Shown piece by piece: positions 10,080 through 38,108 of a stretch of 55,647 nt of DNA (the stretch's first letter is position 1; every line of letters starts with the position of its first letter). The notes below the pieces were generated by a model. The model saw only the letters and a program-made list of their open reading frames with translations, searched no databases and was not told the origin of the DNA. Source of the stretch: an uncultured bacterium (lineage in GTDB: Bacteria > Pseudomonadota > Gammaproteobacteria > Burkholderiales > SG8-39); assembly GCA_965233185.1 (NCBI GenBank), contig CBDDSA010000059.1, forward strand, positions 1-55,647, written 5' to 3'. Position numbers and translations under genes: made by a program.

Positions 10080-10124
10080 TCGGGCTAGGCTACCCGGAAC
10101 CGCTTCACGAATAAACTGTTTCCT

Positions 10125-13290: not shown

Positions 13291-13391
13291 ATGGCGCTGG
13301 ATGCCTATGTCGCCGCTGCGCGCTCATCGCCGTGACGGCGCCTGCCTCATTCGGCGGCGGGCTCTGGCTCGCGCTCACCCGGGGGAGATAA
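13291..13391 (+). pseudogene. collapsed membrane-protein relic (possibly LysE-like)
   Basis: GAGG + ATG 13291 (MALDAYVA) joined out of frame to a hydrophobic C-terminus ALIAVTAPASFGGGLWLALTRGR-TAA ending 2 nt before dusA. Confidence 0.35.
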
Positions 13392-13393
13392 GC

Positions 13394-14346
<953 letters not shown>

Positions 14347-14350
<4 letters not shown>

Positions 14351-17429: not shown

Positions 17430-17440
17430 CGGCTTCGATT

Positions 17441-18871: not shown

Positions 18872-19281
18872 TTCGGGTACACCTCGAGGGCGCCGAGTTG
18901 CTGATGCTTGCGGTGCAGCTCGAGCTCGAAGCGGCCGCTGCGCGCTGCCGCAAAGTGCAGGACTGCGGGCTCGCCGGCCTTGATGCGCAGTTTCAGGTCG
19001 TAGCCATGCACGTGCAGCTCATCGTTGAAGTTCGAGTCGATGCGCAGCGTGACCTGGTCTCCCTGGCGCACCTGCAGCGATTCCGAACCCGACACCAGTT
19101 TGCCGTCCCTGACGACCAGGTCGACGGTCTTCTCCTGCGTTTTAGCAACCAGGGGGGCAGCTGCGACCGACGCAGCGGAAATTTCTTTCGCGGGCATCGG
19201 CGGCGCAGGCCGGAAGGCGAGCCACAGCCCGGCCAGCACAAGCACCGCGGTAAACGCAAAGATGATCCGGACAGAAAGCAT
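18868..19281 (-). CDS. membrane-anchored cupredoxin-fold protein (no Cys)
   Basis: VRQGDQVTLRI..DELHVHGYD..GRFELELH cupredoxin pattern; ATGA overlap with the membrane-protein gene. Confidence 0.7.
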   Translation of the reverse strand: MLSVRIIFAFTAVLVLAGLWLAFRPAPPMPAKEISAASVAAAPLVAKTQEKTVDLVVRDGKLVSGSESLQVRQGDQVTLRIDSNFNDELHVHGYDLKLRIKAGEPAVLHFAAARSGRFELELHRKHQQLGALEVYPK

Positions 19282-19313
19282 TTTCTTGTGTGGCCGTACA
19301 AACGCTACGGTAC

Positions 19314-19341
19314 CAAAAGAAAGCCCCGCTCTGGCGGGGCT
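19314..19341 (-). terminator. Rho-independent terminator after the LVIVD array
   Basis: AGCCCCGC-4 nt loop-GCGGGGCT stem (19322-19341) followed on the minus strand by a T-rich tract (TTCTTTT). Confidence 0.8.
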
Positions 19342-19364
19342 GGCGATGCGTTTCTCCTACCGTG

Positions 19365-20939: not shown

Positions 20940-20962
20940 AGCCCCTCCCTCGAGTGTTACGG

Positions 20963-22582: not shown

Positions 22583-22584
22583 GA

Positions 22585-24210
22585 TTAGTTCTGCTCTCCC
22601 TCAGGGGTCCTGCTCTCGGGGAATGGCCAGACGCCGTTGGTGAACTTGAGGCTAAGTACGCCGTTGTCCTGGCAGGTGGTCCACAAGGTGCCCCGGCGCG
22701 CGTCCAGATGAACCTGCGCCGAGCACCAGTCGGCGCCGCCCGGCCTGAAGTTGTTGCCTAGCGTGTGGTTCGAGCCTGGACTGTCGGTCATCACGCCCGC
22801 CGGGTTGAAGTAGGCGATCTCCTTCGGCCGCAGCGGATCGCGGATGTCGAAGACGCGGATGCCTGAATTGAACATGCCGCAGGCGAGCGTGGTGGCGTTC
22901 TTGCGGTTGTCGACGCTGCAGTAGTGCGTGCCGTAGGTGAAGATGCTCAGGCCAACGACATCGGGCAGCACCTGCGGGCAGTTCTTCGGATCGTGCACCT
23001 CGTGCATGATCTTGGTCACCACCTTCGGATTGCGCTCGTCGCTGATGTCTATGATGCGCGCCATCGGAAAGGGCGCCATGCCGGCCGCGCATGCCGCGGC
23101 CAGCTGCGCGGCGCTGGTAGTGCCCCCAGAGCCGCCCTCGTCAACGAAGATCACGTACGGCTTGCCCTTGATCCTGACGTTGATGGTGTGCTGCGCGGTT
23201 GCCCCGTCCTTCCAGTACACCTCGCCCAGCACCTTGGGTTGCGGGTTGGGCAGGCGCTGCTGGATCTCGGACAGGTCGTAGATCACCAGGCCGTTGTTCG
23301 CCGGCACGTTGGGATCGGTGAGCGTCGCCGGGTTGATCGAGCCGATCGACACGAAATAGCCGCGCGTGCCGTCGTCGCTGATCGACAGGCCGTGCGTGCG
23401 GCCTCCGGTGCCCACGCGCGGCACGAACCAGGAGGTGAGCAGCTTCGGCTTGGTTGCGTCGGTCGTATCAACTGCGTAGTAGTTGTTCGGGACGGTGCGC
23501 CCCCCGCCGTAATACGTCAGGCCGTCGGGCGCCCAGCTGCCTTCGTGGCCGATGATCGGCGTCACCACGCCGCCGCCGTCGGTGCCGGTGCCCACCTTGA
23601 CGCTGGCCAGGAGCTGCGGGAAGCGGCAGTCGTCGGAGATGTCGTAGATGTCCACCTCCGGCCCGCCCGCGCCGTCCTGGCCGTTGTCGGCAGCGAGCAG
23701 CTGCCGGCGCTCGTTGACCTTGAGCGACTCCCAGGGATCGAGCATCGAAACGGTGGTCAGATAGGCCGTCGGCGTGGGATTGCGCGGGTCGGTGAGGTCG
23801 ATCACCGGCACGCCCATGTTCGCCCGGCCGGGCCGGCTCAGCGTCGGCGAAGCCGTGCCGTGGTATCCGCATATGCGCCGCGTGTTGCCGCCGCCGCTGT
23901 CGCGGTCGTCGGGGTCATCCGCCGCATGGCGCAGCTTCTGCCTGAATTGCGTGGTTTGCCAGTTGGCGCCATCGCCGCGATGCTGGCCGAGCAGCTGGAG
24001 GTTGCAGTTGAATCCCTGGAATCCTGCCGCACGCATCGCCGCCGGCACCTGCCCCTGCAGCGCCGTCTCCGGCCGATCGCCCGGGCCGCATACCGCCTTC
24101 GGTACGGTGAGCGGGACCGGCCCGCTGTCCTTCTTCTTGTTGTCAGCGCCCGCAACGCCGGCGCAGGCTAAGGCGATGACCACGGCTTGGACGATCGGCG
24201 CGGTTTTCAT
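22585..24210 (-). CDS. secreted LVIVD-repeat beta-propeller protein, paralog 1
   Basis: Signal peptide; same motif blocks as paralogs 2 and 3. Confidence 0.85.
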   Translation of the reverse strand: MKTAPIVQAVVIALACAGVAGADNKKKDSGPVPLTVPKAVCGPGDRPETALQGQVPAAMRAAGFQGFNCNLQLLGQHRGDGANWQTTQFRQKLRHAADDPDDRDSGGGNTRRICGYHGTASPTLSRPGRANMGVPVIDLTDPRNPTPTAYLTTVSMLDPWESLKVNERRQLLAADNGQDGAGGPEVDIYDISDDCRFPQLLASVKVGTGTDGGGVVTPIIGHEGSWAPDGLTYYGGGRTVPNNYYAVDTTDATKPKLLTSWFVPRVGTGGRTHGLSISDDGTRGYFVSIGSINPATLTDPNVPANNGLVIYDLSEIQQRLPNPQPKVLGEVYWKDGATAQHTINVRIKGKPYVIFVDEGGSGGTTSAAQLAAACAAGMAPFPMARIIDISDERNPKVVTKIMHEVHDPKNCPQVLPDVVGLSIFTYGTHYCSVDNRKNATTLACGMFNSGIRVFDIRDPLRPKEIAYFNPAGVMTDSPGSNHTLGNNFRPGGADWCSAQVHLDARRGTLWTTCQDNGVLSLKFTNGVWPFPESRTPEGEQN

Positions 24211-24212
24211 GG

Positions 24213-24280
24213 CTAGTTCTGCTCTCCTCCTCGGGTCCCGCTGTCGGGGACGGCCAGACGCCTTTTCTGAACTTCAGCAG
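24213..24280 (-). pseudogene. 3' remnant of a fourth LVIVD paralog
   Basis: Minus strand reads LLKFRKGVWP, then after a 1-nt loss PDSGTRGGEQN-TAG, matching the paralog 2 tail LKFRKGVWPFPDSRTPPGEQN; 2 nt before the next ATG, as between paralogs 1 and 2. Confidence 0.8.
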
Positions 24281-24378
24281 CGAAGTTGTGCTGCTTTTTG
24301 CAGCATTATTCCCGCGCCGACTTACATGGCACTTACGATTGTCGTCAATCTAAAGCGCAGCGCCCGTTGAATTGAATC

Positions 24379-24413
24379 CAAACGATCATGAACTGAGAGC
24401 AAACGCTCATGAA
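24379..24413. promoter_or_regulatory. 14-bp direct repeat with 21-bp period in the divergent promoter region
   Basis: CAAACGATCATGAA (24379-24392) and CAAACGCTCATGAA (24400-24413), one mismatch, in an AT-rich gap between two divergent operons. Confidence 0.5.
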
Positions 24414-24491
24414 TGGTATTGCAGTGCGGTTAGGTGGCCCCGTTCGCTTACATGCCGCTTATGGTTACCATCGGCCTCGGGAGGATCCTTG

Positions 24492-25757
24492 TTGAAGCTT
24501 TGGTTGGCACCCCTGCTGGCGCTGGTCGCCGGCAGCGCCGCGGCGTTCGAAAGCGACGTGCATTACGGCATGACGTTCTGGCTTGCCCTCAAGGCGGGCT
24601 TCAACGAGCGCGAAGCCGCGACGGTCGCGACCGGCAACCAGCGCGTCGACTCGGGCGACATGCAGTACATCGACCTTGGCCTCATGTACGCCTGCCTGGG
24701 CAAGGACGACGTTGGGATGCAGCGCGCCCGGGCGCACCACTACCCGGCGGGCGCCGCCGGCGGCGAAGCTGCCAGGAAGCCCGCGCTCGAGATGATAAAG
24801 ACGGCGCCCGACAAGTCGGGATTCATGTTGCTCAAGCTCGGCGAAGCGCTGCATGTGCTGCAGGACTCCTGGGCGCACCAGGGCGAGCCGGAAGCACCGC
24901 TCGGCGGCAGGACCGGCGTCGAATGCGACGCGGCGCGCACGTGGGGACACGCCAAGGCGCGCGGCGGCGCGCGCTCGCACCGCGCCGACCTGACGCGCTA
25001 CTGGCCTGCCGACACGCTCGCCGCCGCCCGGGCAACGTATGAGGTGCTCATGCGATATCCGGCCGTCGGCGGCGTCAAGCGCACGCCGCAGGCATGGGAC
25101 GAGATCCGCCCGCTGCTCGACGGCTTTCTCAAGGCATCGACGAAGACGCAAAAGCGCGCCTGGTTCGCCCAGGAGCGCGTCCAGGATGTGTCGTTCCTGG
25201 AAGGCATCAGCCTGCCCGATGGCGCGAAGCCGTTCGAGCTGCGCTGGAACGGCCGGCGCCTGCCTCCGGTGCCGACGCACCAGTCCCGCCAGCATCAGGT
25301 CGACGCGGAGCTGCTCGAGTTCTTCCACCGCTTCTTCGAGCGTTGGCTGGGGGCCCGCGATTTCGCGGCGCTCGCCAGGGAGTTCGGCCCCGCGGCAGCG
25401 GCGCCCCGCGCCGAGCTTGCCGCGCGCCTAAAGCTGTGGCGCCTGCGCGACCACGGGCGGGTTGCCGAGCTCGCGCACAAGGCGGGGGCGCTCACCAGGA
25501 ACGAGCGCAATCGCGTCGATTCGATCAAGCCGCTCGCGACCTACGAGCAGCCCCTGGACGCCTACTTTCCGCTGCTGCCGCGCATCGAGGGCGTGTCGCC
25601 CCTGCTGCCTTTCTTCGTCGCCGAAACAGCCAAGGATCGCACCGCGCTGGCGGCGGTGAAGTTCCGGCATGCGCCGTACGACGCGCTCGCCGTCGTCGCG
25701 GCGAAGAACGGCGGGCGCTGGCGCATAGAATCGGTGCTTGCCACGATCGACCACTGA
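24492..25757 (+). CDS. secreted protein, Zn-phospholipase C/P1-nuclease-like N-terminus
   Basis: GGAGG + TTG; signal ends AAA-F; FESDVHY near the mature N-terminus, QRVD, HHY and LGEALHVLQDSWAH metal-ligand pattern. Confidence 0.55.
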   Translation: MKLWLAPLLALVAGSAAAFESDVHYGMTFWLALKAGFNEREAATVATGNQRVDSGDMQYIDLGLMYACLGKDDVGMQRARAHHYPAGAAGGEAARKPALEMIKTAPDKSGFMLLKLGEALHVLQDSWAHQGEPEAPLGGRTGVECDAARTWGHAKARGGARSHRADLTRYWPADTLAAARATYEVLMRYPAVGGVKRTPQAWDEIRPLLDGFLKASTKTQKRAWFAQERVQDVSFLEGISLPDGAKPFELRWNGRRLPPVPTHQSRQHQVDAELLEFFHRFFERWLGARDFAALAREFGPAAAAPRAELAARLKLWRLRDHGRVAELAHKAGALTRNERNRVDSIKPLATYEQPLDAYFPLLPRIEGVSPLLPFFVAETAKDRTALAAVKFRHAPYDALAVVAAKNGGRWRIESVLATIDH

Positions 25758-26734
25758 TGCCGTTCTACGCCGCCGCTTGCCAGACCGACTTCCCCTGCCC
25801 CGCCACACGCGCGGATATCGGCGAGCGCACGCGCCGCATGTGCACCATCGCCGAGCAGACGATCCTCGGCTACGCGCCATTCTTCGACGTGCGCCTGCTC
25901 GCGTTTCCCGAGTTCGCGCATGCCGCGCCGGCGTATCCGACGGTCGCAGAGCTCAGGCGCCACCTCGCTGTGCCGGTACCGAACGAGCACACCGCCGCCT
26001 ACGAGGACCTCGCGCGCAAGCATGGCTGCTATATCCAGACCGGCACCTTCCTCGAAGCCGACCCGGATTGGCCCGAAGCGGTGTTCAACACCACGGTGCT
26101 GGTCGGGCCGAAAGGCATCCAGCTCAAGTACCGCAAGGTGAATCCCTGGATTCCCTGGGAGGTGCATGCCAGTCCGCACGACCTGCCCGGCTACCGCGAC
26201 AATCCGTTCCCGGTGGCCGACACCGAGCTCGGCCGCATCGGCGTGGCGATCTGCTACGACTGGCTGTTTCCGGAGAGCATTCGCCAGCTCGCCTTCAATG
26301 GCGCCGAGATCCTGGTGCGCGTTTCTGCCTATATGGACCCGTGGGGCGCGACCGCCCCCATGGACTGGTGGACTCTTTTCAACCGCGCGCGCGCCGCGGA
26401 AAATACGGCTTACGTAGTCGCCGCCAACCAGGGTGCGCAGCTGCGCAATTACCCGCCGTTCAGCTGGCCCGGCGGCAGCATGGTGGTCGACTACGACGGA
26501 CGCATCCTCGCGCAGGCCGACCCCGGCCCGGGCGAGAAAGTGGTGGTGGCGCCGATCGACATCGCCGCGTTGCGCGCCGAGCGCGCGCGGCGCACCGGCC
26601 ACGACATGCGCGCGCATCTGCGCAGCGAAGTCCACGACTACCTGCGCGGCGGCTGGCTCGCACCGGGCGGCGAGCGGCCGCTGACCCAGGAGGACATCGA
26701 GCGGCGCATCGCGGATGCCAAAGGCAAGCTTTAG
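25757..26734 (+). CDS. nitrilase-superfamily carbon-nitrogen hydrolase
   Basis: Catalytic triad motifs FPEF (Glu), YRK (Lys), ICYD (Cys); TGATG coupling to the upstream gene. Confidence 0.9.
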   Translation: MPFYAAACQTDFPCPATRADIGERTRRMCTIAEQTILGYAPFFDVRLLAFPEFAHAAPAYPTVAELRRHLAVPVPNEHTAAYEDLARKHGCYIQTGTFLEADPDWPEAVFNTTVLVGPKGIQLKYRKVNPWIPWEVHASPHDLPGYRDNPFPVADTELGRIGVAICYDWLFPESIRQLAFNGAEILVRVSAYMDPWGATAPMDWWTLFNRARAAENTAYVVAANQGAQLRNYPPFSWPGGSMVVDYDGRILAQADPGPGEKVVVAPIDIAALRAERARRTGHDMRAHLRSEVHDYLRGGWLAPGGERPLTQEDIERRIADAKGKL

Positions 26735-29700
26735 GGCCGTTGTCGCGGTGTTGCTCCTGAGCGCTTGCGCGCCGCGGGAGCCCACCCCGGCCGAGCTCGC
26801 CGAGCTCGACCGCGGCGTCGGCCTGATGGGCAAGTTCGAGTTCCGCGAGGCGCACGACCTGTTTGCCCGGCTCGCCAAGCGGCATCCGCGCTGGTTCGAG
26901 GCGCGCTTCAACCTCGGGATAGCGACGCTCAACCGCCAGGCCGAAGGCGACGAGCGTGCAGCGGCCGAAGTGATGCGAGGGCTCCTCAAGCAACGCGCCG
27001 ATGACGCGCGCGTCCTGTATACGCTCGGCCTGATCGCGTTGCGCGGCGAACCGCCGAAGAACGCCGAGGTTCTGCTGCGGCAAGCCTTCGAGAAGGACCC
27101 GCGCGATGCCTACGCAGCGTATTTCCTCGGCCAGGCGGTGCTCGCGCAGGGCCGCCCCGCCGACGCGCTGGAGCTCTTCGAAGCCGCCGCCGCGCTCGAC
27201 CGCCGCCTGCGCAGTGCGCAGTACGGCGCGGCACAGGCGCTTGCGCGGCTCGGCCGCGGCCCCGAGGCCGAAGCGCGCATGGCGGAGTTCCAGCGCCAGG
27301 CCCACAATCCGCTGGCGCGCCTGGCAGAGTTCAAATACACGCGCATGGGACCGAAAAGCGAGGCGCTGCCCGCGCCGCGCGCGGCCGCGCACGCCGCGGT
27401 GCCATCGGGCGCGCTGTTCGCGAGTCCTTCCATACTTCTCGAGGCGAAGCCGCAGGCCGGCCAGCCGGTCGCCTCGTTCGCCGACATCGATGGCGACGGT
27501 GAGGTCGATCTCTTCATCCCGGGCGGCAGCGGGCAGCGCAGCCATGTTTTCCTGAAGCGCAGCCAGCGGTTCGAGAGGCAGCCTGAACATGCGCTGGCGA
27601 GGCTCGAAGGCATCGAGTTCGCGGCGTGGGGCGACCTCGACAACGACGGCCTCACGGACGCGCTGCTGTGTTCCGCCGGGCACGCGCCTGCAGTGAGGCG
27701 CAACTCCGGAAGCGGCGCCTGGCAGCCGCTCGCCGTCCCAGCGCTTTCCCGCGTGCGCGGGGCGCGCGACTGCGCGCTGCTCGATGCCGACCACGACGGC
27801 GATTTGGACTTGCTGATTATCAGCGCCGAGGGCCGCCGCGAGCTCGTCTCCAACAACGGCAACGGCAGCTTCCGCCCGCTTGCCGGCCGGCTGCCGAGGC
27901 CGCCGGCCGGCCGCGCCAGCCAGCTCCTCGCGGCCGACTTCGATAACGACCGCAGCCTCGACCTCGTCGTGCTGCGCGGCGAGGGGACGCACGAGGCGCT
28001 CTTCAACGACCTGCTGTGGACCTGGCGAACGGAGCCGGGATTCGGCGGGGTCGCGCGGCTGCCCGCGCTGGCGGCCGTCGCGGGAGATCCGCAGGCTACC
28101 GGCGAGAACGAGATCCTGGCACTGACGCCGGGGCTCGCGGTAGAGCGCTGGTTGCGGCAGCCCGACGGCGCGTGGCGCGCCGAGCCGCTCATCGAGCAAC
28201 CGCCGGCCGAGAAGCCTGCGGGCCGCGCGCAGATCGCGCTCGCCGATCTCGACGGCGACGGCAGGCCCGAGGTGCTCGCCACTTCGCCGCGCGGCCTGTC
28301 GGCGTGGCGCCTTTCCGGCGAGAGCATCTGGCAGCTCGAGGACCCGAACCTCGTCTCCTGGGCCCTCGCCAGCCTGGACGAGCGCGGCCCGTCGCTCGTC
28401 ACGCTGCACCGCGACGGCTCGGTCGCGCTGCACGCGCCCGGCCCGGGCCGCGCGCGCTTTGCGCGGGTCGCGCTTTCGGGCCGGCACGATGCCGCGACCT
28501 CGATCCGCTCCAACGCATCGGGCATCGGCGCGCGCGTCGCGGCGCGTATCGACGGCCGCTGGGTGGTCGCACAGACGCTGCGCGCCCAATCTGGCCCGGG
28601 GCAGAGCCTTGCGCCGCTTGCCCTCGGTTTGGACAATGCAGCGCGGATACAGTACCTGCGCATCGACTGGTCCGACGGCACTTTCCAGACCGAGACCGGC
28701 GTCGCCGGCGGCGAGTTGGTGCGTATCGCCGAAACCCAGCGGCAGCTCTCCAGCTGCCCCCTGCTTTTCGCCTGGGACGGACAGCGTCATGCTTTCGTCA
28801 GCGACTTCCTCGGCGTCGGCGGCCTCGGCTACCTGGTCGCGCCGGGCGAATATGCGCCGCCGCGGCCGTGGGAGAACTTCCTGATGCCCCCCGGCCTGCT
28901 GCAGCCCAAAGACGGCCGCTACGTGCTCAAGGTGGCCGAGCCGATGGAGGAAGCGGCCTATATCGATGCATTGCGCCTCGTCGCCTACGACCTGCCGCCG
29001 GGCTGGCAAATGGCGCTGGACGAGCGCATGCAGATCGGCGAGCCCAAGGTGAGCGGGCAGCCGTTCTACTATCGGCGAGCGGTGCTGCCGCAGCGCGCGG
29101 GCAACGAGCGGGGCGAGGATGTCAGCGCGGCGCTGCGCGAGGCCGACCGAAAAGCCGCCGACCCGGGCAGGCTCGATAGGCGCTTCATCGGGCGGCTCGC
29201 CGGCGAACACGTGCTGACGCTGGAATTCGAGGACGCGCTCGAAGGAACCGGCAAGCCGATCCTGGTCATCGACGGTTGGATCGAGTATCCGTATTCGCAA
29301 ACGATGTTCGCCGCGTGGCAGGCGGGCGCGCACTACCACGCGCCGACGCTGGAAGCGCGAGGCGCCGACGGCAGCTGGCAGGTGCTCCTGAAGGAATTCG
29401 GCTACCCCGCCGGCATGCCGCGCACCATGGCAGTCGCGCTGCCGCACCTGCCGCAGGGAACGCGGGCGCTGCGCCTGCGCACCAACCAGCAGATCTACTG
29501 GGACCGCATCTCGGTCGCATGGGCCGAGGATGCCTGGATCCAGCATCACGTGTTGCCCGTCGCGAAAGCGGAAGTGCGCGAGGCCGGATTCCCGCAGCGT
29601 TCTACCGGGCCGCAGCACCAGCCCGACTACGACTACACGCGGCGCGCGCCCCTGTGGGATACCCGGGTGCAAGCCGGCCATTACACCGCGTTCGGCGCTG

Positions 29701-30002
29701 CGGCGCCGCTCGTCGCCGCGCGCGATGATGCCCTGGCGATCATCGGGCCAGGCGAAGAGATCCACGTCGAGTTCCCTGCCGGCCTTGCACCTTTACCGAA
29801 TGGCTGGACGCGCCGCTTCGTGCTGGAGACGAACGGCTGGGCGAAGGACATGGACCTCTACACTCGCGATCGCGATACGCTCGGGCCGCTGCCGGCAGCC
29901 GGACAAGGCAGCGCCACGAAGAACGACCTTGACCGCCGTTTCAATCTGCGGCCCGCCAGCGTGCCAAACTTGCAAAGCGAAGGCCGCGCCGAAACCGATT
30001 GA
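26715..30002 (+). CDS. lipoprotein: TPR + FG-GAP repeats + ASPIC/UnbV + C-terminal beta domain
   Basis: Lipobox LSAC; TPR-like helices; DIDGDG/DLDNDG/DADHDG/DFDNDR/DLDGDG motifs; SNASGIGARV..IDWSDG; SSCPLLFAWDG C-terminal domain. Confidence 0.85.
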   Translation: MPKASFRAVVAVLLLSACAPREPTPAELAELDRGVGLMGKFEFREAHDLFARLAKRHPRWFEARFNLGIATLNRQAEGDERAAAEVMRGLLKQRADDARVLYTLGLIALRGEPPKNAEVLLRQAFEKDPRDAYAAYFLGQAVLAQGRPADALELFEAAAALDRRLRSAQYGAAQALARLGRGPEAEARMAEFQRQAHNPLARLAEFKYTRMGPKSEALPAPRAAAHAAVPSGALFASPSILLEAKPQAGQPVASFADIDGDGEVDLFIPGGSGQRSHVFLKRSQRFERQPEHALARLEGIEFAAWGDLDNDGLTDALLCSAGHAPAVRRNSGSGAWQPLAVPALSRVRGARDCALLDADHDGDLDLLIISAEGRRELVSNNGNGSFRPLAGRLPRPPAGRASQLLAADFDNDRSLDLVVLRGEGTHEALFNDLLWTWRTEPGFGGVARLPALAAVAGDPQATGENEILALTPGLAVERWLRQPDGAWRAEPLIEQPPAEKPAGRAQIALADLDGDGRPEVLATSPRGLSAWRLSGESIWQLEDPNLVSWALASLDERGPSLVTLHRDGSVALHAPGPGRARFARVALSGRHDAATSIRSNASGIGARVAARIDGRWVVAQTLRAQSGPGQSLAPLALGLDNAARIQYLRIDWSDGTFQTETGVAGGELVRIAETQRQLSSCPLLFAWDGQRHAFVSDFLGVGGLGYLVAPGEYAPPRPWENFLMPPGLLQPKDGRYVLKVAEPMEEAAYIDALRLVAYDLPPGWQMALDERMQIGEPKVSGQPFYYRRAVLPQRAGNERGEDVSAALREADRKAADPGRLDRRFIGRLAGEHVLTLEFEDALEGTGKPILVIDGWIEYPYSQTMFAAWQAGAHYHAPTLEARGADGSWQVLLKEFGYPAGMPRTMAVALPHLPQGTRALRLRTNQQIYWDRISVAWAEDAWIQHHVLPVAKAEVREAGFPQRSTGPQHQPDYDYTRRAPLWDTRVQAGHYTAFGAAAPLVAARDDALAIIGPGEEIHVEFPAGLAPLPNGWTRRFVLETNGWAKDMDLYTRDRDTLGPLPAAGQGSATKNDLDRRFNLRPASVPNLQSEGRAETD

Positions 30003-30072
30003 CGCCGCGTCAGCGGCTGCGCGAAGATTGTTCGCAAAGCCAGTTGAGTAAACCCTCGGGAGGAGAGGGCCC

Positions 30073-32901
30073 GTGGCCGAAAATGGCCTTCCACGCAAGA
30101 TCGTGTATGTGCCGGCCGTCGGGCCGCGGCTGAGGAAGCTGCTGTTCGCGGTATTCGCGCTGTTCGCAGTGCTGGCCGTGAACTCGGTCTACTTGGGCAC
30201 CATCACCTGGTTCGAGTGGCAGTCGGGCAAGACGCTGCAGGACTACTTCTACCAGCTGATGTTCTTGCTGCATCTCGCGCTCGGCCTGTTGATCATCGTG
30301 CCGGTGATCGTGTTCGGCGCGCTCCACTTGAAGAACGCCTGGCCGCGCCCGAACCGGCGCGCGGTACGCGCCGGGATCGCGCTCTTTACGTGCGCGCTCC
30401 TGCTTCTCGCCTCCGGGGTCGTGCTCACGCGCCTGGGTGCCTTCGAGGTGCGCGACCCGGCGGTGCGCGCGCTCGCGTACTGGCTGCATGTCATCACGCC
30501 GCTCGCGGTTGCGTGGCTGTTCGTGCTGCACCGGCTTGCCGGCAAGCGCATCAACTGGCGGCTCGGCGCACGCTGGGCGGGATTCGCCGGCGCCTTTGCG
30601 CTCGTGATGCTGGTCGTGCAGGCGCAGGACCCGCGCCGCTGGAACGAGAAGGGGCCGGCCTCCGGCGAAAAGTATTACTTCCCGTCCCTCGCGCGCACCG
30701 CCACCGGCAATTTCATTCCGGCACGCACGCTGCAGATGGACGGGTACTGCCGCGAGTGCCATCAGGACATCCACGAGAAGTGGAGCCACAGCGCGCACCG
30801 ATTCAGCTCGTTCAGCAACCCCGCGTATCTGTTCTCGGTACGCGAGACGCGCCGCGTAGCCAAGGAGCGCGACGGGAACCTGAACGCCTCGCGCTGGTGC
30901 GCGGGCTGCCATGACCCGGTGCCGTTCTTCTCGGGCGCCTTCGAGGACGCGCGCTTCGACAACCCAGACTACGACCTCGCCAAGGACCCGATGGCAGGCG
31001 CCGGCATTACCTGCACCACCTGCCACGCCGTCACGCACGTGAACTCGCCGCGCGGCAACGCCGATTTCACCATCGAGGAGCCGCTGCACTACCCCTTCGC
31101 CTTCAGCGACAACCCGGCGCTTGCCTGGCTCAACCGGCAGCTGGTCAAGTCCAAGCCGGCGTTCCACAAGAAGACCTTCCTGAAGGAGCACCACCGCAGC
31201 GCCGAGTTCTGTTCGACTTGCCACAAGGTGCACCTGCCGGAACAGCTCAACAAGTACAAGTGGGTGCGCGGGCAGAACCACTACGATACTTACCACCTCA
31301 GCGGCGTGTCGGGCCACGGCGTGCAGTCGTTCTACTATCCGCCGAAGGCGACGCACAACTGCAATGCCTGCCATATGCCGCTTGCGCGCTCGAACGATTT
31401 CGGCGCCCGAAGGTTCGACGAGAGCGGCGAGCTGAAGGTGCACGACCACCAATTCCCGTCGGCCAATACCGCGCTGCCCCACATGCTCGGCTACCCGGCG
31501 TGGGTCAATGAGGCACACCGCAAGTTCCTCGAGGGCGTGGTTCGCGTGGACCTGTTCGGCCTCAAGGAGGGCGGCACCATCGACGGCAAGCTGCACGCGC
31601 CGCTGCGCCCGGGGGTGCCGGTGCTCCAGCCGGGCAAGACCTATCTCCTGGAGACGGTCGTGCGTACGGTCAAGATGGGCCACCCACTTACACAAGGCAC
31701 GGTCGACTCCAACGAGCTGTGGCTGGAGATCATCGTCAAAAGCGGCCATCGGGTGATCGGGCGCAGCGGCGGCATGGACGGCGACGGAGCGGTCGATCCA
31801 TGGTCGCATTTCGTCAACGTGTACATGCTCGACCGCAATGGCAACCGCATCGACCGGCGCAACCCGCAGGACATCTTCACGCCGCTGTACAACAACCAGA
31901 TACCGCCCGGCGCGGCCGACACCGTGCACTACAGCTTCACCGTGCCGCAGCAGGCGCGCGCGCCGCTGACCATCGAGGCACGGCTGCACTATCGCAAGTT
32001 CGACGCAACGTATGTGCGGCACTTCATGCGCGACCCGCAGGCGAAGAACCGCCTGCCGGTGATCACCATGGCGGCCGACCGCGTCACATTCCCGATCAGC
32101 GGAGGCGAGGCAAGCAACCCGGCGTCGAAGATCGAGCTCTGGCAGCGCTGGAACGACTACGGCATCGGCCTGTTCCGCAAAGGGGGACGCGGCGAGCTAC
32201 GCCAGGCCGATGCCGCTTTTGCCGAGGTCGAGAAGCTCGGGCGCGGCGACGGCGCGCTCAACGTCGCGCGCGTCGCCTTGCGCGGGGGCCGGCTGGACGA
32301 GGCCGCCGCGGCGCTGGAGCGCGCGGCCAAGGTCCGAATCCCCGCCCCGGCATGGACCATCACGTGGTTCACGGGCCTGGTGAACAGGCAGAACGGCAGG
32401 CTCGACCAGGCGATCGCCGATTTTCGCGCAGTGATCGGCACGCAGTTCGCCGAGGCGCGCAGGCGCGAATTCGACTTCAGCCAGGACTACACCGCGCTTG
32501 CGCAGCTCGGCCAGACGCTCTTTGAGCGCGCGAAGATAGAGCGCGCGCCGCAGGCCCAGGCGCGCCGCGAGGCGCTGCTGGGGGAAGCGGCGCAGTGGTT
32601 CGAAAAGGCATTGGTGCTCGACTCCGAGGACCTCGCCTCTCATTACAACCTGTCCCTCATCGCAGGCCTCCTTGGCGACGAGGCGCGCGCCGAGAGGCAC
32701 CGCGCGCTGTACGCGCGCTACAAGCCTGACGAGAACGCGCGCGACACCACCGTGGCGAAGCATCGCGCGGCCAATCCTGCCGCCAACCATGCCGCCGAGC
32801 CGGTGGTGATCTACGCGTTACAGCGCCCCGGGTACTACACCGCGGACGTCGGTCCCATCCTGTCGGCCCCCGTTCCGCTGGCAAGCAGCTATGGCAAGTA
32901 G
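30073..32901 (+). CDS. membrane-anchored pentaheme cytochrome c with C-terminal TPR domain
   Basis: About 5 N-terminal TM helices; CRECH, CAGCH, CTTCH, CSTCH, CNACH; RWNDYGIG followed by TPR repeats; AGGAG RBS + GTG. Confidence 0.88.
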   Translation: MAENGLPRKIVYVPAVGPRLRKLLFAVFALFAVLAVNSVYLGTITWFEWQSGKTLQDYFYQLMFLLHLALGLLIIVPVIVFGALHLKNAWPRPNRRAVRAGIALFTCALLLLASGVVLTRLGAFEVRDPAVRALAYWLHVITPLAVAWLFVLHRLAGKRINWRLGARWAGFAGAFALVMLVVQAQDPRRWNEKGPASGEKYYFPSLARTATGNFIPARTLQMDGYCRECHQDIHEKWSHSAHRFSSFSNPAYLFSVRETRRVAKERDGNLNASRWCAGCHDPVPFFSGAFEDARFDNPDYDLAKDPMAGAGITCTTCHAVTHVNSPRGNADFTIEEPLHYPFAFSDNPALAWLNRQLVKSKPAFHKKTFLKEHHRSAEFCSTCHKVHLPEQLNKYKWVRGQNHYDTYHLSGVSGHGVQSFYYPPKATHNCNACHMPLARSNDFGARRFDESGELKVHDHQFPSANTALPHMLGYPAWVNEAHRKFLEGVVRVDLFGLKEGGTIDGKLHAPLRPGVPVLQPGKTYLLETVVRTVKMGHPLTQGTVDSNELWLEIIVKSGHRVIGRSGGMDGDGAVDPWSHFVNVYMLDRNGNRIDRRNPQDIFTPLYNNQIPPGAADTVHYSFTVPQQARAPLTIEARLHYRKFDATYVRHFMRDPQAKNRLPVITMAADRVTFPISGGEASNPASKIELWQRWNDYGIGLFRKGGRGELRQADAAFAEVEKLGRGDGALNVARVALRGGRLDEAAAALERAAKVRIPAPAWTITWFTGLVNRQNGRLDQAIADFRAVIGTQFAEARRREFDFSQDYTALAQLGQTLFERAKIERAPQAQARREALLGEAAQWFEKALVLDSEDLASHYNLSLIAGLLGDEARAERHRALYARYKPDENARDTTVAKHRAANPAANHAAEPVVIYALQRPGYYTADVGPILSAPVPLASSYGK

Positions 32902-34729
32902 GAACGAAGCCGAAGAACTGGTAGATGCCGACGACCGGCGCATCGGCCGGGCCTTCGGTATTTCGCTCTGGGTGATCGGCGCTGCCGGCTTGCTGGTCAT
33001 CATCGGCTACCTCATCAGCACGGCGCCGAAGGCGGTCGTGCCCATCAAGGAAACGCTGATCCGGGCGCCGCTGCCGCCGGACGCGCCGCCAGTCGCAGCG
33101 GCGCCCGCACCGTTCCGCGACGTGACCCGCGCGTCCGGCGTACGCTTCGTGCACCGCAACGGCGCCTACGGAGGGAAGCTGCTCCCCGAGACCATGGGGG
33201 GCGGCGTCGCGGTGCTCGACGTGCGCGGCAACGGCCGGGCCGACCTCGTGTTCGTAAACTCAGGCTCCTGGACCCCCGAGAAAGTCGGCGTTGCCGACCC
33301 GACGCTGCACTTGTATCTCAACGACGGCAAGGGGCAGTTCCGCGACGCGACCGCCGGTTCCGGCCTGGATGCGGAGCGCCTCTACGGCATGGGCATCGCC
33401 ACGGGCGACTTCGACAACGACGGTTTCGACGACCTCCTCTTGACCGGCGTCGGCGGGGTGCGCCTGTTCCGTAACCTTTCCGGCAGCGGCAGATTCGCCG
33501 ACGTCACGCGCGAGGCCGGCATCGCCTCGGCAGCCGAGGACTGGTACACCTGTGCAGCCTTCGTCGATACCGACAATGATGGTTGGCTCGACATCTTCCT
33601 CTGCCGCTATGTGCAATGGTCGCGCGAGATCGACCGCGCCATCGATTTCCGCCTGACCGGCGTCGGCCGCGCCTACGGCCAGCCGACCAGCTTCGAGGGC
33701 ACCTCGCCGCGGCTGCTGCGCAATCTGGGCAACCGCAGGTTCGTCGACGTTAGCGAGAAGGCCGGCATGCGTGTGCTGAACCCGGCTACCGGCCAACCCG
33801 TCGCCAAGTCCCTCGGCGTGCTACCCGTGGACGTCGACCGCGACGGCTGGATCGATCTCGTGGTGGCGAACGACACGGTGCGCAACTTCCTGTTCCTCAA
33901 CCGCAAGGGCGTGTTCGAGGAGGCCGGGATGAAAAGCGGCCTGGCATACGACGTGAACGGCAATGCACGCGGCGCGATGGGTATCGACGCCGCGAGGCTG
34001 GGCGACGCCGGGCAGCTCGCCGTCGCCATGGGCAACTTCGCGAACGAGATGTCTTCGTTCTACGTCGGCGGGTCCGGCGCGCGCTTTGACGACCACTCTA
34101 TAGTCTCGGGCATCGGCCCGGCGACGCGCCGCGCGCTCACCTTCGGCGTGCTGTTCCTGGATTACGACCTCGACGGCCGCGCGGATCTGTTCCACGCCAA
34201 CGGTCACATCGAGGACGAGATCAGCAAGGTGCAGGCGAGCCAGCAGTATGCGCAGCCGATGCAGCTCTTCTGGAACTGCGGCGAGGCGTGCCCGCAGCCT
34301 TACGTGGAGGTTCCGCAGAAGGAGCGCGGCGCGCTGGCGCAGGCGATCGTCGGCCGCGGCGCCGCCTATGCCGACCTCGACGGGGACGGCGACCTCGACC
34401 TGGTCGTGACGCAGATCGGTCGGCCGGCGCTCGTGCTGCGCAACGACCAAGCGAGCGGCCATCACTGGCTGCGCGTGCGCCTGGAAGGCTCGGGCAAGGT
34501 CAATCGCGACGCCATCGGCAGCTGGATCGAGGTCACCGCCGGCGGCACCACGCGTCGCGGGCAGGTGATGCCCACGCGCAGCTATCTCTCGCAGGTCGAG
34601 CGCACGCTGACGTTCGGCCTCGGCACGGCGACCCGCGTGGACAATCTCACCGTGCACTGGAGCGACGGCACCCGCCAGGCGGTTGAAGTACCCGGGGTAG
34701 ACCGGGTGCTTTCGATCAGGAAGCCGTAG
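32891..34729 (+). CDS. CRTAC1-like FG-GAP/ASPIC-UnbV protein, N-terminally membrane anchored
   Basis: TM anchor; LPETMGGGVA, GDFDNDG, DVDRDGW.D..VANDT, GAMG, GRGAAYADLDGDGDLD, NRDAIG..SYLSQ..FGLG. Confidence 0.88.
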   Translation: MASRNEAEELVDADDRRIGRAFGISLWVIGAAGLLVIIGYLISTAPKAVVPIKETLIRAPLPPDAPPVAAAPAPFRDVTRASGVRFVHRNGAYGGKLLPETMGGGVAVLDVRGNGRADLVFVNSGSWTPEKVGVADPTLHLYLNDGKGQFRDATAGSGLDAERLYGMGIATGDFDNDGFDDLLLTGVGGVRLFRNLSGSGRFADVTREAGIASAAEDWYTCAAFVDTDNDGWLDIFLCRYVQWSREIDRAIDFRLTGVGRAYGQPTSFEGTSPRLLRNLGNRRFVDVSEKAGMRVLNPATGQPVAKSLGVLPVDVDRDGWIDLVVANDTVRNFLFLNRKGVFEEAGMKSGLAYDVNGNARGAMGIDAARLGDAGQLAVAMGNFANEMSSFYVGGSGARFDDHSIVSGIGPATRRALTFGVLFLDYDLDGRADLFHANGHIEDEISKVQASQQYAQPMQLFWNCGEACPQPYVEVPQKERGALAQAIVGRGAAYADLDGDGDLDLVVTQIGRPALVLRNDQASGHHWLRVRLEGSGKVNRDAIGSWIEVTAGGTTRRGQVMPTRSYLSQVERTLTFGLGTATRVDNLTVHWSDGTRQAVEVPGVDRVLSIRKP

Positions 34730-36338
34730 GAACGCGCGCGGCCGCAGGGCTGCGCGGGTAGAACACAGGATCCTCGGTCGGCCAGCCGCGACGGGCGGGC
34801 TTGCGGCTTTGATACAGCCGCAGGTTCGTCGCAAGGAATCCCTGGTCAACCGGGGTTTTCGAGCGCTGGTAGCCGATGATCGTCTCCTGCTGCAGCTTCG
34901 TAGCCTCGTCGAAGCGGCGGTTCTCGGCGAGCGCCATGGCATAGGTCTGCCCCACCGCCAGGCTGCGCGTGGCCTCGAACAGCTCCTTCGCGAGCGCGAG
35001 GGCGCGCTTGGCGTCGCGCGCCGCCGCCTGCGGCGCCGTGGCGAGCACGCGGGCGAGCGAATTCATCAGCTCGCCGCTGCGCGGCTCGGCGGCGAGCGCA
35101 TCCTCTAGCACCCCGCGCGCTTCCACGTAGCGGCCGGATTTGATCAGCGCCATGCCGAGCGAGTGCGCCACCCTGGCCGAATAGCCGCCGCCATCCAGTG
35201 CGCGGCGGTAATGCTTCGCCGCCTCATTCGCCGCACCCGCGCGCAACTCGAGATCGGCGAGGTACACGAGAGCCTGGACGTTGTCCGGATCGCGACGCAC
35301 CGCGGCGAGGTAGTGCTCCAGCGCAGCCTTGTCGTCTCCGAGCCGGTCGTGCACCACCGCAAGGCTGAAATGCGCCACAGCATTGCCGTCATCCAGCCGC
35401 ACCGACTCGGTCAGCTCGTCGCGCGCTTCGGACACCTTGCCGAGGTTGGCGAGCGAGATCCCCAGGTTTGCGCGCGCCTCGGCGCTGCCGGGAGCCGAGT
35501 GCACCGCCGCCCGGAAGGCCTGCTCGGCGAGGTCGAAGCGACCCTCCTTGCCGTAGCGCTGGCCGCGGCGCAGAAGCACGCGGGACACCACGACCTTGGC
35601 GCTCATCAGGTCGACCGTCGGGTCGGCGACGCCGGGCTCGGGGCCGTTGGGCACGTGCCGCGCGAGGTTCGCCTGCGCGTTCGCCGTGTCACCCAGCCCG
35701 CGGTAAGCCATCGCGAGCGGATGCCGCAGGCGGCTCGCGTTTGGCCAGAGCCTGAGCGCGCCTTCAAGGTTCTCGACCGCCTGCAGGTAGCGCTTTTGCG
35801 CGAGCGCCGTCTTGCCCAGGCCGGCGAGCGCCGCTGCTTGCGCTTCCTTATTGCTTTTTGCCTTTTCGAACAAGGCTTGCGCCTTGTCCATTTCGCCGCT
35901 CTGGAAGTAAAGCTGCGCGAGGTAGATCTGAGTCGGCGCATCGTCCTGGTTGAGCGCGTGGACCGCCTCGAAGGTTCTCAGCGCCTCCGGAAGTCTGCTC
36001 GCATCGGCGTACAGATGCGCAAGGAGGTACGGCCAGCGCGTGTCTCGCGGGGCGAGCTTGCGGGCGTTGAGGTACGCAGCTTCGGCCGGGGTCGGCAAGT
36101 CCTGCGCGTGGTACACCATCGCCAGCTCGCCGTAGGCGGCGGCGAGCTCGGCGCGGGCGGCCGAGCGCTGCTTCACGGTATCGAACTGCACATGCGCTTC
36201 GGCGATGCGCGCTCGCACCGCCGCCTCGAGGTTGCTCGTATCCGTGGGCGGAATCGGTATCAGGTCCCCGACGGGAGCGTCACAGCCCGCGGCCAGCAGC
36301 CACAGCACGAGGCCCACAACACGAAAAGCGGCTGTCAT
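34716..36338 (-). CDS. TPR-repeat lipoprotein
   Basis: Lipobox AAGC; many TPR-like helical repeats; NSLARVLAT..RDAKRALALA C-terminus; ATGA overlap with the upstream gene. Confidence 0.85.
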   Translation of the reverse strand: MTAAFRVVGLVLWLLAAGCDAPVGDLIPIPPTDTSNLEAAVRARIAEAHVQFDTVKQRSAARAELAAAYGELAMVYHAQDLPTPAEAAYLNARKLAPRDTRWPYLLAHLYADASRLPEALRTFEAVHALNQDDAPTQIYLAQLYFQSGEMDKAQALFEKAKSNKEAQAAALAGLGKTALAQKRYLQAVENLEGALRLWPNASRLRHPLAMAYRGLGDTANAQANLARHVPNGPEPGVADPTVDLMSAKVVVSRVLLRRGQRYGKEGRFDLAEQAFRAAVHSAPGSAEARANLGISLANLGKVSEARDELTESVRLDDGNAVAHFSLAVVHDRLGDDKAALEHYLAAVRRDPDNVQALVYLADLELRAGAANEAAKHYRRALDGGGYSARVAHSLGMALIKSGRYVEARGVLEDALAAEPRSGELMNSLARVLATAPQAAARDAKRALALAKELFEATRSLAVGQTYAMALAENRRFDEATKLQQETIIGYQRSKTPVDQGFLATNLRLYQSRKPARRGWPTEDPVFYPRSPAAARVPTAS

Positions 36339-38032
36339 TTGCCCTGGCCTTGAACCAGCGTTGCATAGGTGCGCAACGGCGGTGCGGCAAACTGCTCCCT
36401 CGAGCCGTCGGGCCAGTGCACCAATAGCGCCTCGATCTCGCTCGCTGCGCCCAACCCGACCAGCACGCGCGGGTCGTTGGCCGACAGGTAGCTACCGTCG
36501 GCGCGCACGCGGCGCCAAAGCGTGGGCGCGCCCTTGCGCCGGATCTCCACCCTCGCGCCGTAGGCATCGCGACGACCCGTAAGCAGGCGCAGGCCAAGCC
36601 AGTTGCGCGCCGCCCCGACGCCATTGCGGAAGATGCGCAGCCGGCCGTTGTTGTTGCTCACCACGAAGTCGCTGGCCCCGTCGTTGTCGAGGTCGCCCAC
36701 GGCGAGGCCGCGGCCCACCTCCGACAGCGCAAAGGCCGGTCCGGCGCTGGCGGTGACCTCCTCGAAGCGGCCGTTGCCCAGGTTGCGCAGCAGCTGCTTG
36801 ACCTGGTGCAGCGGCAGCGGGTCGCGCGCGCGCACCAGCTTCTCGATAACATGCACCGCGCCGTTGGTAATCACCAGGTCCAGCCAACCGTCGTTGTCGT
36901 AATCGAAGAAGGCGGTGCCGAACCCGGTGTAGGGCGTCGTCGGCAGGTAGAGCCCGACCGAAGCGCTGCGATCCTCAAACTGACCCTTGCCGAGGTTGAC
37001 GAATAGCGTCGCCTTCTCGTGGGTCAGGTGGGTAACGAGCACGTCCTCGGTGCCGTTACCGTCATAGTCGGCGGCATCGATGCCCATGCCGGCTTCGGGC
37101 GCACCGTCGGCATTCACCGCGGCACCGCGCAGCTCGGCCTCATTGCGGAAGGTGCCGTTCTTCTGGTTGATCCAAAGATGGTTCGGGTTGCCATCATTAG
37201 CAACGAACAGATCCTGCCAGCCGTCGCCGTCGAGGTCCGCGGCGATCACGCCTAGCCCGTTGCCGAATGCCCGCGTGATTCCCGCCTTGACCGACACGTC
37301 CTCGAAGCGGCCGTTGCCGCGATTGCGGTAGAGAATGCCCGGGACGGCCGGATAAGTCGTCGGTGCGCAATAGTCGCGCGCACTGGTGTAGTTATGGCAC
37401 TTCTTGTCCTTCTGCACCGAGTAGTCGACGTAGTTGGCCACGTAAAGGTCGAGCAGCCCGTCGCGGTCGAAGTCAAAGAAGGTTGCGCTCGAGCCCCAGC
37501 GTCCGGCGCCGGCAACACCCGCCGCGCGCGTCGAGTCGACGAAAGTGCCGTCACCATTGTTGCGGAACAGCTGGCTGGGCGAGCCGAAGTGCGTGATGAA
37601 CACGTCGACGTCACCGTCGTTGTCGATGTCGCCGTAGGCAATGCCCATGCCGTAGCCGTGCGAGCAGAGGCTGGATTTTTCCGTGACGTCGGTAAAGCGC
37701 GCCGCGCTCGGCGAGTCGTTGCGGTACAGGCGCGCCCCGCACGAGCGTGGCTTTTGCGGCTGCTGCTCGCCGAGCGCGCCGCCTTGAAGTGCGAGGATAT
37801 CCAGCCGGCCGTCGTTGTCATAGTCGAGGAGCGCCAAGCCGGAACCGATGATCTCTGAAAAATAATACTGGCCGCTCATCCCATTGACATGTCTGAATTC
37901 GACCCCCGCCGCGTCGGTGACATCGACGAAAATTTCCCGTGCCACCTCGGGTTTCGGCGCTGCGGGTTCAGGGCCGCAAGCCGACAGCGACAGGACCAAG
38001 GCCAATGGGACAATGCAGCTCACTCGAATCAT
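36335..38032 (-). CDS. CRTAC1-like FG-GAP/ASPIC-UnbV lipoprotein
   Basis: Lipobox LSAC; EIIGSGLALLDYDNDG, YGMG, DFDRDG.LD.YVANY, EAGMG, GRGLAVGDLDNDG, GSYLSA..VGLG. Confidence 0.88.
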   Translation of the reverse strand: MIRVSCIVPLALVLSLSACGPEPAAPKPEVAREIFVDVTDAAGVEFRHVNGMSGQYYFSEIIGSGLALLDYDNDGRLDILALQGGALGEQQPQKPRSCGARLYRNDSPSAARFTDVTEKSSLCSHGYGMGIAYGDIDNDGDVDVFITHFGSPSQLFRNNGDGTFVDSTRAAGVAGAGRWGSSATFFDFDRDGLLDLYVANYVDYSVQKDKKCHNYTSARDYCAPTTYPAVPGILYRNRGNGRFEDVSVKAGITRAFGNGLGVIAADLDGDGWQDLFVANDGNPNHLWINQKNGTFRNEAELRGAAVNADGAPEAGMGIDAADYDGNGTEDVLVTHLTHEKATLFVNLGKGQFEDRSASVGLYLPTTPYTGFGTAFFDYDNDGWLDLVITNGAVHVIEKLVRARDPLPLHQVKQLLRNLGNGRFEEVTASAGPAFALSEVGRGLAVGDLDNDGASDFVVSNNNGRLRIFRNGVGAARNWLGLRLLTGRRDAYGARVEIRRKGAPTLWRRVRADGSYLSANDPRVLVGLGAASEIEALLVHWPDGSREQFAAPPLRTYATLVQGQGK

Positions 38033-38108
38033 TGTAGCGGCGCGGCTTCTACGCTTTCGTTGCGCGTCATTGTATGATGCCGGTTCCATAGGCTAGCGGG
38101 TTCCCTGT

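Follow-up and report, generated by a model that had tools for sequence, protein, structure and literature searches.

The window analysed here is the 55,647-nucleotide stretch of contig CBDDSA010000059.1 (assembly GCA_965233185.1), from an uncultured bacterium of the Burkholderiales. It carries five consecutive genes, g1 to g5, which encode a DUF6765 protein, an amidase-like CN-hydrolase, a lipoprotein, a membrane pentahaem cytochrome and an anchored propeller protein. On balance, we favour the view that they belong to one copy of a widespread envelope redox cluster, in which g2 to g5 would form the core, the genes would be borne on an island, the cytochrome g4 would provide a link to the quinone pool and g2 would contribute amide hydrolysis. 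The order of these genes recurs across phyla, g2 and g3 are coupled by a stop/start overlap, the genomes carrying g2, g3 and g4 form nested sets, and the window copy sits in an island between two genes that are neighbours in related genomes. The cluster genes and the two convergent genes that follow them are listed below.

g1, 24492..25757, plus strand: exported DUF6765 protein (PF20551 match)
g2, 25757..26734, plus strand: cytoplasmic CN-hydrolase, amidase/formamidase-like, 325 aa (PF00795)
g3, 26715..30002, plus strand: 1095-aa lipoprotein with N-terminal tetratricopeptide repeats (TPR), an FG-GAP propeller, UnbV_ASPIC and an all-beta tail of ~430 aa (Pfam)
g4, 30073..32901, plus strand: 942-aa membrane cytochrome with five transmembrane (TM) helices, five CxxCH motifs, a beta-sandwich and a TPR tail
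g5, 32891..34729, plus strand: membrane-anchored CRTAC1-like propeller, FG-GAP and UnbV_ASPIC (Pfam)
g6, 34716..36338, minus strand: secreted TPR protein, convergent to g5 (Pfam TPR families)
g7, 36335..38089, minus strand: second CRTAC1-like propeller (Pfam)

The five genes are joined by overlapping or short junctions

The five co-directional genes had third-position GC contents of 0.85-0.89, a pattern of real genes, in a window with a GC content of ~68%. The start of g1 is a TTG codon (24492) with GGAGG upstream, and its TGA stop (25755-25757) has one base in common with the ATG of g2 at 25757 (TGATG). The ATG of g3 (26715) lies 20 nt ahead of the end of the g2 stop codon (TAG, 26732-26734), and that of g5 (32891) 11 nt ahead of the end of the g4 stop (32899-32901). 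Between the g3 stop (30000-30002) and the GTG start of g4 (30073) there is a 70-nt gap, and the start is preceded by a GGGAGGAG motif. The five open reading frames (ORFs), the overlaps of 1, 20 and 11 nt and the 70-nt gap given by a first-pass annotation were therefore all read directly at the junctions, and these overlapping and short junctions support a predicted single operon from g1 to g5. Its description of g3 as a TPR-propeller lipoprotein, g4 as a pentahaem cytochrome and g5 as an anchored propeller likewise held, as revealed by the lipobox LLSAC, the five CxxCH motifs and the N-terminal anchor, respectively, together with the Pfam domains. A promoter and terminator scan of positions 24000-38500 gave counts no greater than in shuffles. 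No RNA run was listed among the matching read sets, in which one soil-metagenome DNA run contained 7% of the sampled words.

The g2-g3-g4-g5 order is conserved across phyla

A scan with g2, using one genome per species, yielded at least 576 relatives, and the window proteins were compared by tblastn with the best 80 of these loci. In the best 80, g2 was 69-84% identical across phyla; the loci came from Burkholderiales and other Betaproteobacteria, many Gammaproteobacteria, Planctomycetota, Kiritimatiellia, Verrucomicrobiales and Acidobacteriota. Among the 72 loci with at least 1 kb of downstream sequence, 54 carried g3 directly downstream of g2 on the same strand (51 found by script plus L026, L035 and L047, where the g3 match was split), and these included Pseudomonadota, Planctomycetota and Acidobacteriota. 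At two loci (L015 and L069), g3 adjoined g2 in a different orientation. When at least 8.5 kb of downstream sequence was available (43 loci), g2-g3-g4-g5 were colinear in 21, with g5 coming after g4, all four were present and rearranged in 2, only g2-g3 was found in 9 and g2 stood alone in 11. The idea that this hydrolase clade neighbours cytochrome/ASPIC genes was thus sustained, and the clade did not turn out to be usually unlinked from them.

The junction between g2 and g3 was also conserved. In 40 of the 59 loci that allowed the g3 N-terminus to be located, a possible g3 start overlapped the g2 stop by 4 nt ([A/G]TGA), and two further loci had a possible 1-nt overlap; g3 orthologues were only 33-61% identical where the overlap was kept across phyla. 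In addition, a lipoprotein signal with its Cys was present in nearly all of 50 g3 orthologues. Considering adjacency, stop/start overlap and g3 export together, we judge the cytoplasmic hydrolase g2 and the exported lipoprotein g3 to be the tightest pair of the cluster.

A g6-type TPR gene was found near the cluster in at least 9 of the 80 loci (e.g., L005, L020, L058, L071 and L072) and a g7-type second CRTAC1 copy (40-55% identity) beside it in at least 13, both counts being lower bounds because many loci end early. In L005, the convergent g6/g7 arrangement was the same as in the window. On these comparisons, the conserved core appears to be the four genes g2, g3, g4 and g5, which g6 and g7 often accompany. 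A homologue of g1 was found in none of the 80 g2-related loci (tblastn, E<=1e-3) and in none of 30 relatives (18 same-genus and 12 same-order genomes). Because of this absence, g1 is a local, lineage-specific addition that heads the predicted operon and lies outside the conserved unit. The five-gene unit of the first-pass annotation is hence retained for g2 to g5 and loses g1, while at its other end it reaches further, to the convergent g6 and the second CRTAC1 gene g7, within an island of 23.7 kb.

Beyond g2 to g7, no further neighbour such as a transporter or regulator was common to more than 10 of the 80 loci in a crude all-against-all ORF clustering, which used home-made ORF calls and included shadow ORFs. 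At seven loci (L009, L016, L018 and related Planctomycetaceae), the gene just before g2, in the same orientation, encodes an AA_permease_2 protein of ~700 aa; it was the sole transporter repeatedly adjoining g2 and was restricted to this one lineage. Upstream of g2 in L012 (4047-5837) lies a gene for a protein resembling Porphyromonas-type peptidyl-arginine deiminase or agmatine deiminase, with a dockerin. This ORF family, another C-N-cleaving enzyme near the cluster, also occurs in L023 and L052.

Genomes carrying g2, g3 and g4 form nested sets

The best-80 locus set was chosen by g2 and gives only the probability of g3 given g2, so whole genomes were searched as well. We used one sample at class level, in which each family was represented by a single genome (201 genomes, G000 counted among them), and one of 151 Planctomycetota. 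Thresholds in the class sample were E<=1e-80 for the g2 clade, E<=1e-30 for the g3 tail domain and E<=1e-40 for the g4 haem domain. In the class sample, g2 was present in 4 genomes, the g3 tail in the same 4 plus 2 others and g4 in all 6 of these and a further 4 (one a weak match), so that the three genome sets were strictly nested. Two of the g2-positive genomes (G087 and G165) carried g2, the g3 tail and g4 on different contigs. Of the Planctomycetota, 15 genomes had g2, 39 had the g3 tail and 33 had g4. Those with g2 encoded the g3 tail in 12 of 15 cases and g4 in 13 of 15, only G228 having neither, compared with 27 and 20, respectively, of the 136 genomes without g2. One-sided Fisher tests, with the centre genomes excluded, gave p values of 1.6e-5 for the g3 tail and 9e-8 for g4, which overstate the case, given that related genomes do not count as independent. 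Roughly half of the co-occurring pairs were split between contigs (6 of 12 Planctomycetota genomes), and all five of the genomes checked in which g2 is unlinked encoded the g3 tail domain elsewhere.

In the reverse direction, g2 accompanied g4 in 4 of the 10 g4-positive genomes of the class sample and in 13 of the 33 from Planctomycetota (~40%). The forward and reverse counts together indicate that g2 occurs almost only beside the lipoprotein and the cytochrome, and is an accessory in roughly 40% of the systems, not a core subunit. The cytochrome itself was present in ~5% of the class sample (10/201) and 22% of the Planctomycetota sample (33/151), and its family comprises at least 6479 clusters at 90% identity.

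The hydrolase g2 belongs to the amidase branch

g2 matched CN_hydrolase (PF00795) with 131.4 bits (gathering cut-off 23.2), which places it in the superfamily, and has no signal peptide. Residues E52, K127 and C166, as well as a second Glu (E173), were invariant in 81 clade sequences, so the intact E-K-C triad noticed earlier in a cytoplasmic C-N hydrolase is a constant feature of the clade. The conservation of these sequences was high overall, with 91 of 325 positions invariant and a mean column identity of 79%. The best structural database matches were the formamidases 5g3o (1e-25) and 2dyu, with aliphatic amidases weaker. Scores against the formamidase AmiF (NF009803, 107.4 bits) and the aliphatic amidase AmiE (NF009802, 74.5 bits) were below the respective cut-offs of 406 and 427. 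A nitrilase proper was rejected, with 79.9 bits versus 500 for NF040852 and 15 bits versus 502.6 for TIGR04048 (Nit6803). Judged by these profiles, g2 is an amidase-branch enzyme nearest to formamidase and aliphatic amidase, and the name 'nitrilase' given to it earlier is valid solely as that of the superfamily.

With AmiF and AmiE (5g3o, 2dyu and 2uxy) g2 shares the CN_hydrolase fold, a similar length, the lack of a signal peptide, aligned E-K-E-C residues and the motifs YRK-x-NPW-x-P-x-E and C-x-D-x-x-FPE. However, the similarity is weak (E 1e-25, 1e-23 and 6e-17), g2 has an extra loop after the catalytic Lys, and its clade is separate, highly conserved and provided with a gene context of its own.

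g4 combines a predicted membrane haem domain with a pentahaem fold

The Pfam and NCBIfam analyses of g4 gave five CxxCH motifs, a weak Cytochrome_C554 match, a TPR tail and weak MtrC/MtrF domain matches. In an alignment of 28 sequences (62-84% identity), the five CxxCH motifs and four histidines, H67, H85, H139 and H153, were invariant. The pairs H67/H85 and H139/H153 sit on the predicted TM helices 2 and 4, and these histidines are the basis on which we propose that g4 probably holds two b-type haems. An AF2 model showed five TM helices, a confident beta-sandwich (residues 490-673) and a TPR arm. The top Foldseek match was 5ze8 (E 5e-8, probability 1.0, TMt 0.58), which is cytochrome c552 of Thermochromatium tepidum, and the family profile matched 5ze8 at 5.6e-4 and MccSep at 0.01.

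As described in PMC11976967, c552 is grouped with ExtKL as the 'PHC' family; MccSep/ExtKL is presented as a polysulfide reductase with a Sec/Cys site (10.1101/2025.11.18.688581), and PtdA as a related pentahaem beta-sandwich protein (10.1101/2023.11.21.568154). By its predicted fold g4 falls in this PHC/c552 group: the five CxxCH motifs lie in a c552-like region, and a beta-sandwich comes after them, as in c552, ExtKL/MccSep and PtdA. The window protein differs from them in its additional ends, an N-terminal five-helix domain bearing four invariant His and, at the C-terminus, a TPR arm, and it is membrane-bound, whereas c552 and MccSep are characterised as soluble or periplasmic in the passages that deal with them. 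It also lacks the Sec/Cys site that defines MccSep. An assignment to MccSep/ExtKL was rejected, as the 28 sequences had no invariant Cys outside the CxxCH motifs and the NF040886 score was 15.6 bits versus 250. The nitrite reductase NrfA was likewise discarded, all five motifs being CxxCH and no NrfA family appearing among the haem-domain Pfam matches at E<=10.

A second point of comparison is CbcL of Geobacter sulfurreducens, described as an inner-membrane fusion of b- and c-type cytochromes by which electrons from quinol reach the periplasm (PMC9129911). In CbcL, one polypeptide joins a TM dihaem-b-type domain to a periplasmic multihaem c domain, an architecture that g4, with its TM histidines, may have as well. 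According to the same account, CbcL has six helices, nine c haems and an N-terminal c domain, whereas g4 has five helices and five c haems, and its membrane domain comes first. g4 further adds the beta-sandwich and TPR regions, and no sequence relationship between the two proteins was detected.

g3, g5 and the other propellers are CRTAC1-like proteins of the calcium type

Pairs of FG-GAP(-like) and UnbV_ASPIC matches assigned four proteins of the window to the CRTAC1/ASPIC-UnbV family: g5 (103.7 and 67.3 bits), g3 (106.6 and 27.1 bits), g7 (187.1 and 55.6 bits) and the product of an ORF at 15249-17657 (164.1 and 44.1 bits). These proteins have FG-GAP_3 and UnbV_ASPIC in common with human CRTAC1 (PDB 9etn) and keep its Ca-type DxDxDG motif. 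They differ from it in being membrane-anchored or lipidated and encoded beside a cytochrome, in the additional TPR and CBM32-like parts of g3 and in the weakness of the sequence match to 9etn (E 0.0034). The Ca-type DxDxDG and D/N/G motifs were conserved in the propellers, and g5 has just one conserved His. Copper or haem sites, considered by analogy with thiocyanate dehydrogenase, were ruled out by the lack of conserved His clusters.

The tail of g3 (residues 660-1095) was modelled by AF2 as beta-sandwiches with a pLDDT of 86. The central sandwich (model residues ~125-280) resembled CBM32/discoidin domains (VIA Z 9-11, rmsd ~3 Å over 115-137 residues), and this was the only part with a clear VIA match; Foldseek TM scores for the tail were below 0.25. 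No Pfam family matched the tail, and ESM Atlas gave only unnamed or UnbV_ASPIC-containing clusters. Many acidic residues of the tail are conserved, together with one Cys, C681 (SSCP), found in at least 95% of 37 orthologues. A complex prediction with g4 residues 480-942 and the g3 tail returned no answer (score 0.00) and has no bearing either way.

A CRTAC1-family gene has also been described inside hydrazine-synthase-like (HZS-like) alpha/beta-gamma clusters, whose genes flank it, in non-anammox bacteria (PMC12758564). There too, as described for Planctomycetota and further phyla, an FG-GAP gene of this family is surrounded by genes for periplasmic haem-c and propeller proteins. In contrast to the present cluster, the partners named are HZS-alpha-like and fused beta-gamma-like proteins, and neither a CN-hydrolase nor a five-TM pentahaem-TPR protein figures in the clusters described (PMC12758564).

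The cluster lies on an island with further propeller genes

All propeller, cytochrome and hydrolase genes of the cluster fall in ~23.7 kb between a dus gene (13301-14350) and a class II aldolase gene (38109-38888). The remaining features of this region are as follows:

island, 14351..38108, no strand: ~23.7 kb between dus and the class II aldolase gene
third CRTAC1-like gene, 15249..17657, minus strand: Pfam FG-GAP_3 and UnbV_ASPIC
unlabelled 476-aa ORF, 17441..18871, minus strand
three tandem LVIVD-repeat propeller paralogues, 19365..24210, minus strand: ~530-540 aa each, divergent from g1 (ESM Atlas 0.98)

The dus and aldolase genes were separated by only 48-74 bp in the congeners G370, G364 and G359 and by 2.3 kb in G373 (74-88% identity). 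g1, g2 and g4 were not found in the 18 same-genus and 12 same-order genomes (completeness 60-100%), and the flanking genes were present in related genomes without them. Since the flanks are adjacent in congeners that lack g1, g2 and g4, we consider 14351-38108 to be a horizontally acquired insertion and the contig not to be mis-binned. The window contained no tRNA, no integrase was seen on the island, and the only common word of at least 9 nt at its edges was a single 9-mer, with no clear flanking repeats.

Homologues of the genes at 15249-18871 were located directly upstream of g2 in L001, L002 and L003. The longest-ORF calls for 15249-17657 and 17441-18871, both on the minus strand, have 217 nt in common, and the true start of the CRTAC1-like gene probably lies further downstream. 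The LVIVD-repeat paralogues matched no Pfam family. This repeat family was also found upstream of g2 in 2-4 copies, with four in L001 and three in L002, and in Burkholderiales it may be part of the system. Two small island ORFs on the minus strand gave weak Pfam hints, cupredoxin-like at 18868-19281 (E 0.004) and cohesin-like at 14347-15252 (E 0.001).

The first gene of the predicted operon, g1, matched DUF6765 (PF20551) with 57.1 bits (Pfam cut-off 26.6), its best stretch covering the first ~40 profile positions only. DUF6765 was the sole family match and no PDB sequence matched at E<=10, so the earlier label 'metallohydrolase-like' was not confirmed. Outside the island, PrpD (2-methylcitrate dehydratase) and aconitase are encoded side by side at 94-4560, an ordinary methylcitrate-cycle pair unrelated to the cluster, and a glucose/sorbosone-dehydrogenase-like propeller adjoins a TonB-dependent receptor at 6771-10199 on the minus strand.

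Discussion

The arrangement suggests how the products might work together. g4 would connect the quinone pool, via membrane haems held by the His residues (two of the b type), to its five haems in the periplasm. Binding of a substrate, or scaffolding of the complex, would fall to the proteins with propellers, TPR and beta-sandwiches. The hydrolase g2, whose translation is coupled to that of g3, would split a small amide that is either a product or a precursor of the periplasmic chemistry, releasing ammonia in the cytoplasm.

Several results weigh against this scheme. The hydrolase is cytoplasmic and the remaining proteins are exported, and the clusters at the 80 loci have no conserved transporter; any link must therefore run through a transported small molecule. 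Most cytochrome-carrying genomes have no g2 (6 of 10 in the class sample and 20 of 33 Planctomycetota), which means that the redox module operates in its absence. In 16 of the 72 loci, g2 stood in unrelated contexts with no other cluster gene nearby, and no common feature was found among the contexts of these unlinked copies. Presence and absence depend on E-value thresholds and on genomes that are partly incomplete metagenome assemblies and non-independent relatives. Regarding the cytochrome, its haem domain was modelled with low confidence (pLDDT 40-75), and its membrane domain (residues 1-200) gave only chance-level Pfam matches, none to a b-cytochrome family. Finally, conservation analysis of the propellers revealed no conserved redox-metal ligands.

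The main rival explanation is that g2 is a passenger, kept by an island that moves as a block and by a promoter shared with g3, and without a biochemical tie to the periplasmic proteins. The unlinked loci and the many cytochrome genomes without g2 fit such a role, as do the separate compartment of the hydrolase and the clear mobility of the cluster. However, a passenger hardly accounts for a stop/start overlap kept in 40 of 59 loci across phyla while g3 itself has diverged to 33-61% identity, for a co-occurrence that holds when the genes lie on different contigs (G087, G165 and half of the 12 Planctomycetota genomes) or for the g3 tail domain encoded in 5/5 unlinked-g2 genomes. We therefore regard this explanation as unlikely, if still to be taken seriously. 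Less probable again would be a CbcL-type respiratory or extracellular electron conduit, in which the propellers and TPR proteins would act as no more than scaffolds, with the amidase as a co-regulated general nitrogen supply. Its appeal comes from the b/c fusion architecture analogous to that reported for CbcL (PMC9129911), the weak MtrC/MtrF matches and the discussion of the c552/PHC family in terms of electron conduction (PMC11976967). Nevertheless, the 80 loci had neither a conserved porin nor a conserved outer-membrane cytochrome; most carriers, judged by record titles, belong to heterotrophic soil and marine lineages of aerobic type; and such conduits are not known to be strictly paired with Ca-type propellers.

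Periplasmic sulfur chemistry, that is, reduction or oxidation of polysulfide or persulfide with the invariant Cys of the g3 tail as sulfur carrier, seems improbable to us. The profile matches to MccSep and 5ze8, the conserved C681, the role in sulfur metabolism suggested for c552 in PMC11976967 and the fact that MccSep, a polysulfide reductase, is the only characterised enzyme of this haem fold (10.1101/2025.11.18.688581, as far as described there) all point that way, but g4 has no conserved Cys/Sec outside its CxxCH motifs and scores far below the NF040886 cut-off, the cluster contains no sulfur genes and the amidase would have no obvious role. We give even less credence to a glycan- or matrix-binding surface structure, with the propellers and the CBM32-like domain as lectins or lyases and the cytochrome serving redox maintenance only. 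The CBM32/discoidin-like fold and the inclusion of lectins among FG-GAP/VCBS propellers mentioned in PMC8023676 agree with it, but having a beta-sandwich fold in common says nothing about function, a membrane protein with seven haems would be an expensive lectin partner, and no glycoside hydrolases, SusCD or sulfatases were conserved nearby.

Returning to the envelope redox cluster that we favour, the first-pass annotation had gone further and proposed the periplasmic oxidation or reduction of a nitrogen compound. We found no direct support for this step: among relatives of the haem domain, the one that has been characterised reduces polysulfide, and the motifs of the propellers are of the calcium type instead of the redox-metal type. 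It is solely the presence of the amidase that would hint at nitrogen in the substrate. A version in which a quinone-coupled periplasmic enzyme, made of the seven-haem cytochrome and calcium propellers, converts a nitrogen compound and the resulting amide is imported and split to ammonia by g2 thus seems doubtful, only a little less so than the electron conduit.

No paper on a gene cluster combining UnbV/CRTAC1/FG-GAP proteins with a multihaem cytochrome or a CN-hydrolase was found in the literature searched, in agreement with the earlier remark that no characterised pathway has this gene set. We know of no function for bacterial CRTAC1/ASPIC proteins, and members of the g4 family carry only generic names such as 'TPR protein' or 'multiheme cytochrome'. 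The cluster is thus an uncharacterised, widespread system built of parts from known fold families. Its conserved, coupled amidase is the sole component with predictable chemistry and offers a first chemical hint. For this reason g2 is the most direct experimental entry, since the compound that it hydrolyses should point towards the product or substrate of the periplasmic machine, and the occurrence of the cluster in the cultured strain Wenzhouxiangella sediminis XDB06 (L063) makes ordinary genetics possible. If the version with a nitrogen compound were true, the cluster would represent an unrecognised route of nitrogen mineralisation in soil and marine Pseudomonadota, Planctomycetota and Acidobacteriota.

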